A DNA stretch of 64,000 nt from Escherichia coli (GTDB taxonomy: Bacteria > Pseudomonadota > Gammaproteobacteria > Enterobacterales > Enterobacteriaceae), in assembly GCF_044647545.1 (NCBI RefSeq), contig NZ_CP172818.1. One strand, written 5' to 3'. This document shows, piece after piece, positions 33,130 to 38,770 of the stretch. How positions within the stretch are numbered: the first letter of the stretch is position 1; the number at the start of each line of letters is the position of its first letter. The notes under the pieces were generated by a model. That model saw nothing but the letters and a program-made list of their open reading frames with translations, was not told the origin of the DNA and ran no database searches. Made by a program: the position numbers and the translations under genes.

Positions 33130-35319
33130 TCAATGTCGTCTAATACCGAGCGCGCGCCTGATAAACATCTGATCAACGTACCCAATCGATCTACTCCAAA
33201 TGTCCTGAGTATCCCGAAGATACTGGCTCAACTCATCCACATCAGCCTCGTCGGAAAATTCCAGCAAGTCTACCAGTCGGTGTAACGTCTGAATGGGAAT
33301 GCCAATCTCTTCTAAGGCATTGACACCTGGTGGTAGATGGAAACTTTCGAACGCCAATTTGACATGTGTGTAATCGACTTTGCTGCGTATACCACGCTTT
33401 ACAGCGTGGTGTTTAACTACATCCTCCATCAAGCTGAGCACCTTAGGTAGGGTATAGCCGAAGGTATTGGTTATGAGCTTCAAATCATTGTTGAGGGCAA
33501 TGGAAAGAGTACGTTTCTCCCCTTCAGAAATCCACTGTCGTGCATAATCGATCTGATTTTTCAGATATTCCGAATAACTTTCAGCACTTAAATAGCCGGC
33601 AAGTTTTGCGATCATGACATCCGTAGGCTTAACAGGGACCCCATTGCGACTGAACGTATGGGGAACCAGTCTGGCAATGATCTTTGCAAAGGTCTTGAGG
33701 AAGTTTGTCGCGGGAGTCCAGTGAAACACTAACGAGGAAAATTCGTTATCGTCCATCATCTCGAACATGCTTTGCAGCATTTCGAACTGCTCGACACGGA
33801 AGTACGAATGCTTCTTCACAAGGTCGATGGAAACACGGTCGTTTATGAAAACCTCATCAAAGCGATCCTGTGAAAACTCGGACAAGTGGTCTGGTTGAAC
33901 GCTGGCTAACAGGTTGATTGGGGTATCAATGCCCTGAATACCGAGCGGAATATCCACCTCTTGATTGAGATTGTCTTCCGGGATTTCCTCCAGGCAAAAG
34001 ATTTTGCCGACGAAGTGAACGCCCATGCGCCCGGCGCGACCTTTGATGTTCCCATGGGTGAATTTGTCAATGCTGCGAGTTCCATCGCGGTTGTCGTAGA
34101 TCACAACGTTCTTAGCGATAGTGTTGACTCCTTCAATGATCGTGGAGGTGCAGAGCAAAAAGCGCAGTTTTCCAGCATTGAATTGGTCGGCAGTGTATTG
34201 CTGCAGTGCCCTCGGTAGCGCGCCAAAATGCAAGCCAATACCGTTTCTAAGGGCGACTGTGTAATCCCAGTCGGCATCGAACTCTTCGCTGACCCAGTCG
34301 ACATGGGGATTCTCAGTCGGAGTGCCATGCCCAAGCCTGATCAGCTCGCGCGCCACCAGGCCCGCAACAGTTGGTGACTTGCAATAAATGATCGTTGCGT
34401 CGACACATGCGTGCGCGATTTCCCCCAGCGCTTTGAGCTTGGCTTTGTCGTCATTCGCTTTGATGCCGAACGTCTTAACATCTAGCGCGACTGTATTGAA
34501 GTCGGTAGAAACGAAAGTATGCGGATATCCAAGTTTTTCGAGACCGCGAATGCTGTTAACGAACGGTCCCGTCAGGTAAAACTGCCTGGAGACCTTAAGC
34601 AGTTTGCTTAACGCAATGTTGAGCTCGATGACTCGTTCGTCTTGATGATCAATGTCCCCGCTTTTCAGTTGTCGGAACGCCAACTTGTAAAACTCGTCAA
34701 TGACGAAGAGGTCAATGTCGACGATGTCGTCACGCTCGTTCACTCGCTCCTGAGTTAACACATAAACAGCCTGATCGGAATGGCACACTTGGGAACTGTG
34801 GTGGATGATCTGATATCGGTCACCGAATCGCTCTTGCAGTCGGCGACGGGTTTCGTCGGCAAGAGCCACGGTTGGAACAACCAGAACAAGCCGTTTCAAA
34901 GTTCCCATGCCGAGCAATGAATCGACGATTGCACTTTTGCCCATGCTTGTAGGTGCACTCAGCACCACGTTTTGACCAGACTTGAGCAGATCGAATATGT
35001 GGAACTGCATTGAGTGGAAAACATAACCATCCGAGAATGGCGTCCGGTATAGCTCAAGCACCCTCAGGTCATCCGGTGTCAGGCTGGTGAACTCCTTTTT
35101 GAGATACGGGAACAAACCTGATTTTCTCACCATATTTTTCAAAATTGTGGTGTGCTCGGAAAACCGCTCGCGCGAATCGAGAGCTCGCACGATCAAGTCC
35201 CGTCCCAAGTCATACGAAACAGGGTTAGACAACAGCTTGTTAACCGCAAACAGATAATTGAACGATGAGAAGTCCTCACCCTGCAGGCTATGTTTCGCCT
35301 GTTCATAGATCTCTGTCAT
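33130..35319 (-). CDS. yfjK: SF2 DEAD/DEAH-box helicase YfjK, 729 aa
   Basis: ORF track; Walker A APTSMGKS, motif II VIDEFY, motif VI GRAGRMG visible in the translation; start overlaps yfjL stop (ATGA). Confidence 0.92.
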   Translation of the reverse strand: MTEIYEQAKHSLQGEDFSSFNYLFAVNKLLSNPVSYDLGRDLIVRALDSRERFSEHTTILKNMVRKSGLFPYLKKEFTSLTPDDLRVLELYRTPFSDGYVFHSMQFHIFDLLKSGQNVVLSAPTSMGKSAIVDSLLGMGTLKRLVLVVPTVALADETRRRLQERFGDRYQIIHHSSQVCHSDQAVYVLTQERVNERDDIVDIDLFVIDEFYKLAFRQLKSGDIDHQDERVIELNIALSKLLKVSRQFYLTGPFVNSIRGLEKLGYPHTFVSTDFNTVALDVKTFGIKANDDKAKLKALGEIAHACVDATIIYCKSPTVAGLVARELIRLGHGTPTENPHVDWVSEEFDADWDYTVALRNGIGLHFGALPRALQQYTADQFNAGKLRFLLCTSTIIEGVNTIAKNVVIYDNRDGTRSIDKFTHGNIKGRAGRMGVHFVGKIFCLEEIPEDNLNQEVDIPLGIQGIDTPINLLASVQPDHLSEFSQDRFDEVFINDRVSIDLVKKHSYFRVEQFEMLQSMFEMMDDNEFSSLVFHWTPATNFLKTFAKIIARLVPHTFSRNGVPVKPTDVMIAKLAGYLSAESYSEYLKNQIDYARQWISEGEKRTLSIALNNDLKLITNTFGYTLPKVLSLMEDVVKHHAVKRGIRSKVDYTHVKLAFESFHLPPGVNALEEIGIPIQTLHRLVDLLEFSDEADVDELSQYLRDTQDIWSRSIGYVDQMFIRRALGIRRH

Positions 35320-36932
35320 ACGACCTCTCTCACCTTCTCATCAACTAATTGGGTTAACCGCTCAAGACTCGGGGCTGGATAAATGAATACGTGGATGCAA
35401 AGATTCGCAAACGGCGAATCCTCGATGAGGTCAGCCGCGAATTTTTCGAACAGCACCGCTGTTTCTTTCTCCAGGTCATCCTCGAACCCCGGCGTTTCAG
35501 GCTCGGTTAGTAGATTAGAGTCGTAGCCCACGAACAGAACAAACGTGAAACGATCGAGGTGAGCATCGAAAGGTTGGCTGCCATCAAGAATTTCGTCAAT
35601 GTCGTGGCGAAGCAGGTAGTTATCGTCTTTAATGTCGAGGATTTTTTTGCGCGCGGTATCGATGCAATCCGAAATGTCCTCGTACAACTGATCCCGTATC
35701 TCCGGCAATCTGACGGCAATGTTAATATCAGTCACCAACTCGCTGAAGCCAATCCAAAGCTGATCACCTTCTGGATCGCGGCGAACGATATGCACGTTTT
35801 CAAGAATTTTTTCGGCCCCTGCTTTTTCCACGTATAGCATGCAAGGAATAGGCTGGCTTTCGTGGTGCTGCCGGATCGTTGCGTGCAACAGCACTCGACC
35901 CAAAAATTCGCTGACGTCATGGAGCGATTTGAAGACGGAATTCTTTAGTCGTTCTCGCTTTTCAATGAATGTCAGTTTATGAATATCAGACATTTCTTTT
36001 GGTCGGAGAAAAACCTCATCCAACCATTGACAGACGTTATCCGCGATGTGCTTGTAGCGGTATTTCTTAAGTGAGTACTGCTGATGTAGAACCTGGCCTT
36101 TACGCTTAGCGCAGACCGAAGCCATAGGCGCTCTAAATGGCGTAAGGATGTGGGGTAAGTCCCGTTTGACGTAGATTTTGCGGCCTGACCGAGATTGGTC
36201 ATCTTCGACACGCTGCTTGAACCACTCAAGTAGGTCTGGTCGTAAGTAGGACTTGTCATCAGCACTGTGAATGCGTCGAGAATGCTCGCCCTTGCGCGTC
36301 ACAGTATCAAGGATGCGGCACCAAATGTCTTCGGCGACGGTTTCGGAACTGAGAATGACCCCATGTAGATCTTGGGAGGCCAGCCGTATGTTCTTGATCC
36401 CTAGAAGTTCCAGTTCGCGCAGGGATGAAAACACTTCCCATGTAGCCGCATCGATCCAATCTGAAACGCTTATACCTGAGTCTGTTAAAAAATTGTCTGT
36501 GCGTTTGTTGAGGTCATCGATGAGTTCCTGTCGACCTGGCTTATCTAGTCGGGCGTTTGGGCTGATCGTCAAGTACTCAAGGGTTTTGTTGACCTTTTCC
36601 TCTGTGACGATGGAGTACCTACGTCCAAGGGACAGGTCAGACTCACACTGCATTGATTTGTGCAAAATTGAACTGCAGGGGATCGTCTTTTTATCAGCAC
36701 CTTTTGAATTCTGAACGATGTCCGAAATGTTCCAACGTGTTTTGCCGGTGCTTTTTACCTGAACGAAGTCGATGTATCCATCAGATACAATGTCGATATC
36801 GTCTGTGACCTCGCAGCGCACACTGCGGATAGTCTTGTCACGAAGCATTCGGGTGACATGGTAAGCGGCTACGCAGTCCTGAAATAAGAAACCGTGCTTG
36901 GCGGCTACTCCGCCTGAATCGTTCGACTCCAT
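35316..36932 (-). CDS. yfjL: YfjL, 538 aa, putative nuclease-like N-terminal domain plus large C-terminal domain of unknown function
   Basis: ORF track; N-terminal GFLFQD...EVTDDIDIV...DFVQVKS resembles a PD-(D/E)xK/QxK core; translationally coupled to yfjK. Confidence 0.88.
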   Translation of the reverse strand: MESNDSGGVAAKHGFLFQDCVAAYHVTRMLRDKTIRSVRCEVTDDIDIVSDGYIDFVQVKSTGKTRWNISDIVQNSKGADKKTIPCSSILHKSMQCESDLSLGRRYSIVTEEKVNKTLEYLTISPNARLDKPGRQELIDDLNKRTDNFLTDSGISVSDWIDAATWEVFSSLRELELLGIKNIRLASQDLHGVILSSETVAEDIWCRILDTVTRKGEHSRRIHSADDKSYLRPDLLEWFKQRVEDDQSRSGRKIYVKRDLPHILTPFRAPMASVCAKRKGQVLHQQYSLKKYRYKHIADNVCQWLDEVFLRPKEMSDIHKLTFIEKRERLKNSVFKSLHDVSEFLGRVLLHATIRQHHESQPIPCMLYVEKAGAEKILENVHIVRRDPEGDQLWIGFSELVTDINIAVRLPEIRDQLYEDISDCIDTARKKILDIKDDNYLLRHDIDEILDGSQPFDAHLDRFTFVLFVGYDSNLLTEPETPGFEDDLEKETAVLFEKFAADLIEDSPFANLCIHVFIYPAPSLERLTQLVDEKVREVV

Positions 36933-37190
36933 TTAGACATCCGTGACAATTTTGCGAAAATTAAGGAGATGTTATGACACAGTCCAATCGGATCACTGCA
37001 TCATCACCAGTGATCTAAATACTTCACAGCCATTCTCGGTCGCAGGTATCAAGCTTTTCAGGATTCCACAAATATTGTAACCCTGACGTCTAATTTGGTT
37101 ATATAACATACTGCCCCAACTAACGTAAGGTAGGCACAGCCTTAATCAAGGTTTTGGTTTTCAAATAGTTCAGAGCTGAGACCGCCAACC

Positions 37191-37242
37191 GCACTATGGC
37201 ACTATGGCACTATGGCACTATGGCACTATGGCACTATGGCAC
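37191..37242. repeat. Octanucleotide tandem repeat (GCACTATG) x6.5 flanked by ACCGCCA
   Basis: Read directly: gcactatg repeated six times plus gcac; 7-bp ACCGCCA on both sides; lies between yfjM stop and yfjL start. Confidence 0.95.
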
Positions 37243-37291
37243 CGCCAGCGATTGTAATCACACTTGATATTATAAAACACAGTTGCACGCA

Positions 37292-37555
37292 TTATTTCCT
37301 GGTTGGTAGGGTCATATCTCGATGCTCTTTGAGCAATGTCAACATCGCGTGTTCATGGCTTTCTATATTGTTGATGCCTTGCCCATCCGGACCCCACTCC
37401 TTATAGCTCATCATGATGGCTTGTTTTGGGCTCTCTGCTCGTTCTGTTTCGACGTAGAATTTTTTCTTGTCTGCTGGCGAATAATTACTAAGTATCGAGT
37501 TGCTGCTTGGTGAGATCAGGAAGAGGTTACCGAAACGATGGACATCATCCCCCAT
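37292..37555 (-). CDS. yfjM: Hypothetical protein YfjM, 87 aa
   Basis: ORF track; divergent from rnlA. Confidence 0.7.
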
Positions 37556-37696
37556 TTTGTGGACTGCCCCCCCGGTAGACGATCCTGCCCTATAGTTGGA
37601 GTGCCCCCTATTCAGGTGGCTAAATTTAGCAAATCAATACACTTCAGGGGGGTATTATTGTAGAGTTTCCCCATATGTTTCTATGGGATCCAGGAA

Positions 37697-38770
37697 ATGA
37701 CAATCAGGAGTTACAAAAACTTAAATCTGGTCAGGGCAAATATCGAGACTGAATCCAGACAATTCATTGAAAATAAAAACTATTCAATCCAATCAATTGG
37801 TCCTATGCCAGGGTCAAGGGCTGGGCTTCGGGTCGTATTTACCAGACCAGGGGTTAACTTGGCAACTGTGGACATTTTTTATAACGGGGACGGTTCGACT
37901 ACAATTCAATATCTCACTGGAGCCAATCGTTCTCTGGGCCAAGAGTTAGCGGATCATCTTTTTGAAACCATCAATCCTGCTGAATTTGAGCAGGTAAATA
38001 TGGTACTGCAAGGATTTGTAGAGACAAGCGTTCTACCTGTACTTGAGCTATCAGCAGATGAATCGCATATAGAGTTCAGAGAACACTCTCGTAACGCTCA
38101 TACCGTAGTGTGGAAAATTATTTCCACCAGCTATCAGGACGAATTGACTGTGAGCCTGCATATCACAACAGGTAAGCTCCAGATTCAGGGCCGACCGCTG
38201 TCATGTTACAGAGTTTTCACGTTTAACTTGGCAGCCCTGCTTGATTTACAGGGTTTGGAGAAAGTGCTAATCCGCCAGGAGGATGGTAAAGCTAATATTG
38301 TTCAACAGGAGGTTGCCCGCACTTACTTGCAGACTGTAATGGCCGATGCTTACCCGCATCTCCACGTGACTGCCGAAAAATTGCTCGTTTCAGGGCTATG
38401 TGTTAAACTCGCCGCCCCTGATTTGCCTGACTACTGTATGTTACTTTATCCTGAACTACGCACCATTGAAGGTGTCTTAAAAAGTAAGATGAGTGGGTTA
38501 GGCATGCCAGTACAGCAGCCGGCAGGTTTTGGAACTTACTTTGATAAACCTGCTGCTCATTACATTCTGAAACCGCAATTTGCAGCTACTCTTAGACCGG
38601 AACAGATTAACATCATCAGCACAGCCTATACTTTTTTTAATGTGGAACGTCATTCTCTGTTCCACATGGAAACTGTGGTCGATGCCAGCCGTATGATTTC
38701 TGATATGGCCCGGTTGATGGGTAAAGCCACTAGAGCGTGGGGAATAATCAAGGACTTATATATTGTTTGA
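37697..38770 (+). CDS. rnlA: RnlA toxin (RNase LS endoribonuclease), 357 aa
   Basis: ORF track; translation MTIRSYKNLNLVRANIETESRQFIENKNY... recognised as RnlA. Confidence 0.92.
   Translation: MTIRSYKNLNLVRANIETESRQFIENKNYSIQSIGPMPGSRAGLRVVFTRPGVNLATVDIFYNGDGSTTIQYLTGANRSLGQELADHLFETINPAEFEQVNMVLQGFVETSVLPVLELSADESHIEFREHSRNAHTVVWKIISTSYQDELTVSLHITTGKLQIQGRPLSCYRVFTFNLAALLDLQGLEKVLIRQEDGKANIVQQEVARTYLQTVMADAYPHLHVTAEKLLVSGLCVKLAAPDLPDYCMLLYPELRTIEGVLKSKMSGLGMPVQQPAGFGTYFDKPAAHYILKPQFAATLRPEQINIISTAYTFFNVERHSLFHMETVVDASRMISDMARLMGKATRAWGIIKDLYIV

Follow-up and report, generated by a model that had tools for sequence, protein, structure and literature searches.

An octanucleotide array beside the abpAB Hachiman operon of Escherichia coli K-12 is probably a lineage-specific variable-number tandem repeat without a dedicated function

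The octanucleotide array between yfjM and the abpAB (yfjL-yfjK) operon of Escherichia coli K-12 is, with a probability that we put at about 80%, a lineage-specific variable-number tandem repeat (VNTR) without a dedicated function. It was studied here in a stretch of 64,000 nucleotides, termed the window. Homology to an insertion sequence (IS), a series of copy numbers between near-identical flanks and new gains of repeat units were observed directly. We infer slippage as the mechanism of expansion as well as neutrality, i.e. no effect of the array on abpAB, and leave a small probability to a weak quantitative effect of the array on abpAB expression. The array is an object of an ordinary kind, real, perfect and still expanding.

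The window matches E. coli K-12 MG1655 at 100%, and its locale is the cryptic prophage CP4-57. Window position x corresponds to position x + 2,728,221 of NC_000913.3, which sets the array at 2,765,412-2,765,463 of that reference. A sequence-only reading of the window had described a perfect 8-bp repeat of six units plus a partial one, and both direct inspection and Tandem Repeats Finder bear this out: six perfect GCACTATG units followed by GCAC fill exactly the interval given in Table 1, with a period of 8, 6.5 copies, 100% matches and a score of 104, the top score in the window (runner-up 77). The longest stretch with a period of eight (s[i]=s[i-8]) comprised 44 bases, whereas in 200 shuffles of the window it averaged 7.7 and did not exceed 11, and the head-to-tail perfect copies of this short unit exceed chance. 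The two ACCGCCA repeats flanking the array also lie where they had been placed, the second sharing 2 nt with the final partial unit, and the distances given earlier are right, with 49 nt separating the array from the yfjM stop codon (37292-37294) and 258 nt separating it from the abpA/yfjL start codon (36932). On the minus strand, the array reads (CATAGTGC)n, which are former Cys-His-Ser-Ala codons of an IS transposase. Since 8 is not divisible by 3, ATGs also occur in all three frames of the array, and a plus-strand open reading frame of 64 aa (37212-37406), antisense to yfjM, begins at an ATG from a repeat unit; no support for expression of this frame was seen.

The genes around the array, yfjM, abpA and abpB, are all located on the minus strand, and the identities yfjM, yfjL and yfjK assigned to them from sequence proved correct. 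The candidate defence operon proposed there is genuine: abpA matched HamA1 in PADLOC (E=2.8e-266) and both Cap4_nuclease and HamA in Pfam, abpB matched HamB1, and the two coding regions share 4 nt. AbpAB, a type I variant of Hachiman, has been studied by Yasui, Sasaki and Otsuka (Yasui 2014; Sasaki 2023, PMC10732053) and discussed by Tuck et al. (2024, PMC12278908). While the operon downstream of the array is this system, the array itself is no described component of it, is missing from the working clone and is unexpanded in homologous modules. Upstream, yfjM has a weak match to PF07510 (GmrSD_C) and is the C-terminal remnant (~14%) of a 641-aa GmrSD-type (DUF262 + DUF1524) gene that is intact in relatives, where the full-length homologue was found by tblastn (locus L010, 7168..9093). 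In K-12, the remainder of this gene is replaced by rnlA-rnlB, and the final ~5 codons of yfjM fall in IS-derived DNA. The intact 641-aa gene is carried by the Enterobacter and Citrobacter plasmids described below and by several assemblies. In several other relatives (L017, L019, L020, L025, L031, L032), additional IS elements with rve or DDE_Tnp_1 transposases interrupt or shorten the GmrSD gene beside abpAB, and abpA and abpB are still full length. Judged from these gene arrangements, the GmrSD gene appears to have been lost repeatedly in the relatives and the Hachiman operon kept.

Table 1. Features in and around the octanucleotide array (window coordinates)
Feature	Coordinates	Strand	Basis or remark
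Octanucleotide array, (GCACTATG)x6 + GCAC	37191..37242	.	Read directly; Tandem Repeats Finder; shuffles
Left ACCGCCA	37181..37187	.	Ancestral transposase codons (..V-G-G..); same bases in ISEc16 and all 1.5-copy relatives
Right ACCGCCA	37241..37247	.	Ancestral transposase codons (..R-W-R-C..)
Fossil 3' end of an IS3-family (ISEc16-like) element	37112..37307	-	blastn, tblastn, inverted-repeat comparison
Fossil OrfB, last 40 codons	37307..37148	-	Interrupted by the array
Fossil OrfB stop TAA	37144..37142	-	
Right terminal inverted repeat of the fossil	ends with TG at 37112	-	Aligned to the ISEc16 right end
Predicted constitutive sigma-70 promoter of yfjLK	37063..37092	-	Genomic SELEX (PMC3946193)
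yfjM	37292..37555	-	87 aa; GmrSD/DUF1524 domain protein in RefSeq annotation
abpA (yfjL)	35316..36932	-	HamA-type effector, N-terminal Cap4-like nuclease; PADLOC, Pfam, RefSeq
abpB (yfjK)	33130..35319	-	HamB helicase; PADLOC HamB1 E=4.2e-220

The DNA holding the array is derived from an IS3-family element. The first lead was the position of eight plasmid matches under the annotation 'ISEc16 IS3-like transposase'. In blastn, the sequences on either side of the array matched ISEc16 (window 37123-37187 with 82% and 37230-37308 with 86% identity), and the corresponding stretches of ISEc16 lie only 2 bp apart, so that the window contains exactly 40 extra bp, equal to five units. When the array was collapsed to 1.5 copies, the minus-strand translation was identical to the C-terminus of ISEc16 OrfB at 30 of 40 residues (tblastn, E=1e-16). 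The homology ends at ~37307, beside the yfjM stop codon. The segment therefore shares with the IS3 family (ISEc16/IS3 group) the last 40 residues of the DDE transposase OrfB (75% identity) and a matching right inverted repeat starting with TG. It differs from a complete element, with both ends and intact orfA and orfB, in that only these 40 codons and the right end, ~155 bp, are left; transposase, left end and mobility are gone, and the 40-bp expansion breaks the frame. The segment 37112-37307 is an IS fossil and no longer an element.

The same fossil was found beside abpAB in other Enterobacterales. A plasmid search with the collapsed sequence returned two full-length matches, on Enterobacter asburiae pAR0468_1 and on a Citrobacter freundii plasmid, both of which carry an island composed of a methyltransferase, a helicase, two DUF262 genes, the IS fossil, abpA and abpB; the second DUF262 gene is the 641-aa full-length yfjM homologue. 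When species-representative genomes were scanned with the right junction, the module turned up in Citrobacter sp. On2M, Mixta theicola and Pantoea sp. Eser. Across the alleles of the module, AbpA is ~96% identical, and nucleotide identity amounts to ~96% in abpA, 96-99% in the 179 bp upstream of abpA and 95-100% in the IS parts. From these identities, the combination of GmrSD gene, IS fossil and abpAB looks like a recently spread module.

Copy number differs between these alleles. Citrobacter sp. On2M, Mixta theicola and Pantoea sp. Eser have 1.5 copies (GCACTATG GCAC), and the same number was present in all six contigs obtained by exact-protein look-up of the Citrobacter and Mixta AbpA alleles, invariant within each allele (two of the six are the same records as genome-scan matches). 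On the two plasmids, and in four assemblies with the same AbpA allele as the plasmids, there are 3.5 copies (GCACTACG GCACTACG GCACTATG GCAC), and a further six assemblies with this allele have 4.5 copies, five with the unit order C,C,C,T and one with C,C,T,T. The presence of two unit orders at 4.5 copies shows that these gains were independent. An alignment series sets all alleles beside ISEc16, which has GGCACTGTGACGAC at the array site. At every copy number among the homologous loci examined, abpA and abpB were of full length. Downstream of the predicted yfjLK promoter and ahead of the abpA start codon, window 36991-37015 contains GATCACTG-N9-CAGTGATC, a perfect inverted repeat whose two arms each include a GATC (Dam) site. 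The K-12, Enterobacter and Citrobacter alleles do not vary in it; Mixta has a different loop, and Pantoea a disrupted left arm with no compensating change. By its position, the inverted repeat could be an operator or a 5'-UTR hairpin.

The earlier reading had proposed comparing copy number across E. coli genomes carrying the island, and this comparison revealed a variable array with 6.5 to 10.5 copies. The census used a synthetic probe of 60-nt flanks and 19.5 units, array length being taken from the span of the match in each genome, and a count at 80% coverage distinguishes arrays with 6.5 or more copies from those with fewer. The locus was present in 362 of 5426 complete E. coli genomes, mostly named laboratory derivatives of K-12, with flanks 100% identical in all of them. 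The array had 6.5 copies in 357 of these K-12-type genomes, 7.5 in NEB 5-alpha, ER2796 and TUM1509, 8.5 in mip270_04 and 10.5 in MB06021; no array shorter than 6.5 copies occurred among the 362. Inspection of the variant sequences showed perfect whole units throughout. ER2796 has 7.5 copies versus 6.5 in the similarly named ER3413, a difference suggesting that the gain in ER2796 may be recent. A scan of metagenomes with the left junction yielded six contigs, all K-12-type with 6.5 copies, and among the viral contigs scanned with AbpA, a single K-12-type contig from IMG/VR was obtained, with 8.5 copies.

New changes in monitored lineages come from the literature alone. An evolution table in PMC4709186 lists +GCACTATG at -258/+102, and the macrophage-evolved clone with the additional 8 bp was fitter, but two other mutations were present in it. 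In a heat-adapted line (PMC12812777), the change (TATGGCAC)6->7 is given as intergenic (-310/+50) between abpA and yfjM. According to PMC10340439, a mutation in the yfjL/yfjM intergenic region rose in frequency and passed between mice housed together. Published tables thus already show the locus to be a mutational hotspot, though it went unremarked.

The prediction of slipped-strand changes in whole units, made from the sequence alone, agrees with the five of 362 K-12-type genomes that deviate (7.5, 7.5, 7.5, 8.5 and 10.5 copies), and it also fits the 8.5-copy IMG/VR contig, the natural alleles with 1.5, 3.5 and 4.5 copies, and the published one-unit additions in two papers. Sequences with the same flanks differ by whole units (6.5, 7.5, 8.5 and 10.5 copies in K-12; 3.5 and 4.5 copies with identical AbpA). 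Instability rises with length, in small samples and without phylogenetic control: the 1.5-copy state is invariant in the loci examined, the 3.5/4.5-copy state is polymorphic (12 loci), and the 6.5-copy state varies up to 10.5. All changes recorded for the K-12 allele are gains (at least seven, against zero losses; p ~0.016 in a sign test, assuming independent events). Among them, 7.5 copies appear three times, 8.5 twice and 10.5 once, in addition to the two published events of +1 unit. The gain-only pattern could reflect selection rather than mutational bias.

A plausible course of events can be proposed. An IS3-family element would once have been situated between the GmrSD-type restriction gene and the Hachiman operon abpAB, and its last ~155 bp would survive as non-coding filler. 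Four substitutions in the dead transposase sequence would have turned GGCACTGTGACGAC, as in ISEc16, into GGCAC-TAT-GGCAC, a 13-nt proto-repeat in which the 8-bp unit is present 1.5 times. Replication slippage on this proto-repeat would then have added whole units independently in two lineages, instability increasing as the array lengthened: the Enterobacter/Citrobacter plasmid allele would have reached 3.5-4.5 copies with GCACTACG units, and the E. coli K-12 allele, which still gains units within the time span of laboratory work, would have reached 6.5 copies. A unit length not divisible by three would cost nothing because the DNA is a fossil. Single-strand folding of the array was no better than that of shuffles on either strand (z = 0.06 and +1.46), so that slippage stabilised by hairpins is not indicated.

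With respect to a possible regulatory role, the position of the array relative to the promoter is relevant. In the spacer between yfjL and yfjM, Shimada et al. (PMC3946193) list TAGACG-18-TGGAAT as a constitutive RpoD promoter of yfjLK. Placed on the window, it has its -35 hexamer TAGACG at 37092..37087, an 18-nt spacer and its -10 hexamer TGGAAT at 37068..37063; the abpA transcription start is thereby a prediction from SELEX with ~100-bp resolution, and our own consensus promoter scan did not call this promoter. An RpoS-holoenzyme SELEX peak falls at about window 37094 (converted from an older genome numbering). The predicted promoter lies 20 bp beyond the IS end, and the array is located 98-150 bp upstream of the predicted -35, spanning roughly -135 to -186. 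At this distance, the array cannot change the spacing between -35 and -10, contrary to the altered promoter spacing suggested earlier. Neither in the array nor next to it did the consensus scan detect a site resembling a promoter or a terminator. Scanning the interval from yfjM to abpA gave no terminator either, and the array could therefore be part of a read-through transcript. An Rfam search of 36700-37800 at a permissive E-value gave no family, the only match being a meaningless miRNA (E=0.23). Sigma-54 sites, considered because TGGCAC recurs every 8 nt on the plus strand, were rejected; the required GC 10-11 nt downstream is absent, and the plus strand of the array points away from abpA.

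The widely used working AbpAB clone pST4-1 consists of a HindIII fragment that ends at 37051-37056, ~120 bp upstream of the abpA ATG (PMC10732053), and excludes both the array and the SELEX-predicted -10/-35 hexamers. As it contains neither, it shows only that the proteins work without the array, and its expression probably depends on vector transcription. To conclude from pST4-1 that regulation can do without the array was discarded as too strong, given that the clone also lacks the predicted native promoter. The text of PMC10732053 labels the E. coli fragment of this plasmid 'T4 phage genome'.

Short repeats in front of genes can be phase-variable or modulate expression: in Haemophilus influenzae, TA repeats between the -35 and -10 of hifA/B are phase-variable and 7-bp repeats upstream of hmw1A/2A modulate expression, and in Neisseria meningitidis an upstream TAAA tract modulates expression of nadA. 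The sequence-only reading had envisaged such a role here, with slippage changing promoter geometry or the 5' transcript and thereby causing heritable on/off or graded expression of yfjL-yfjK. Like the known examples, the array consists of a short unit whose length is not a multiple of three, and it precedes, in the same orientation, genes whose dose could matter, here a toxic system of the abortive-infection type. It is also unstable in whole units. Read-through from yfjM could carry it, repeats as distal as those of hmw and nadA do tune expression, and both the gain-only pattern in K-12 and the spread of a yfjL/yfjM mutation in mouse gut populations (PMC10340439) are in line with such a role. 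However, the array lies neither between the elements of the SELEX-predicted promoter nor over a regulator site nor in the 5' coding region, with 98 bp between it and the predicted -35, but inside a dead transposase fragment, and neither a regulator site nor a promoter, RNA family or structure could be detected within the array. Contingency loci change frequently and reversibly, whereas only five of 362 assemblies (1.4%) differ here, all by gains; reversible switching is thus absent. The unexpanded state of 1.5 copies is the norm in the relatives, and the homologous operons that have it are intact; expansion is confined to two lineages and is therefore not a conserved feature of the module. No published data on expression of the adjacent genes at different copy numbers of the array were found in the literature. 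The proposed on/off or graded control is therefore unsupported, and we consider it unlikely. Very unlikely, in our view, is a selective version, in which a longer spacer alters yfjM read-through or DNA geometry and thus retunes a potentially self-toxic AbpAB, driving the gain-only drift in K-12.

Six identical head-to-tail sites within a mobile defence island could also be direct repeats bound by a protein of the prophage, an IS or the island, in the manner of iterons or operators. We hold this to be highly improbable, since Citrobacter, Mixta and Pantoea have a single full unit (1.5 copies) and hence no conserved array, an 8-bp spacing sets successive sites on different faces of the helix, the units are former transposase codons, and no DNA-binding gene that could be a partner occurs in the expanded lineages alone. 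That the array or its variants are sequencing or assembly artefacts is suggested at most by the largest variants (8.5 and 10.5 copies), which are single whole-genome-shotgun chromosome assemblies; the identical 6.5-copy array in 357 independent complete genomes and six metagenome contigs, the short-read breseq calls of +8 bp in two papers (PMC4709186, PMC12812777) and the perfect whole units of every variant make this explanation extremely improbable. The direct repeats of seven bases flanking the array had alternatively been taken as a possible insertion footprint; in such a case, the octamer block would have been inserted by a mobile element or would be a target-site duplication. Both copies of ACCGCCA, however, belong to one continuous coding frame homologous to ISEc16 OrfB, which is also present in the 1.5-copy relatives and largely in ISEc16. 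In the unexpanded relatives the pair is 20 bp apart, so that the repeats do not flank DNA missing from an uninserted state, and the extra DNA is exactly five copies of a unit already present once. Alignment to these relatives refutes the footprint, and the probability left to it is practically nil.

The VNTR without a dedicated function thus remains the preferred reading. Bacterial VNTRs serve as markers in the MLVA typing of E. coli and Shigella, examples being the CVN and O157 TR loci. As in these loci, short perfect head-to-tail units change by whole units between otherwise identical strains, instability rises with length, and gains arise anew in laboratory lineages. The array differs from them in its 8-bp unit, its restriction to genomes with the defence module and an origin in an IS fossil that can be traced base by base. 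Given that the locus is essentially limited to the K-12 lineage within E. coli (362 of 5426 genomes), it is useless as a species-wide marker.

If the regulatory reading were true, E. coli K-12 would possess a phase-variable Hachiman system, which the evidence does not support; if selection were driving the gains, the array would be a slow, graded tuning knob on a defence operon, made from a dead transposase gene. The practical value of the VNTR reading is that it marks a mutational hotspot in the most-used laboratory strain. Calls such as '+8 bp yfjL/yfjM' or '(TATGGCAC)6->7' recur in evolution and resequencing studies, sometimes beside adaptive mutations, and are best taken as hotspot noise unless shown otherwise. 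Beyond this, the locus would offer a clean case of the birth of a repeat that can be followed base by base, from a dead transposase through a 13-nt proto-repeat to two independent expansions.
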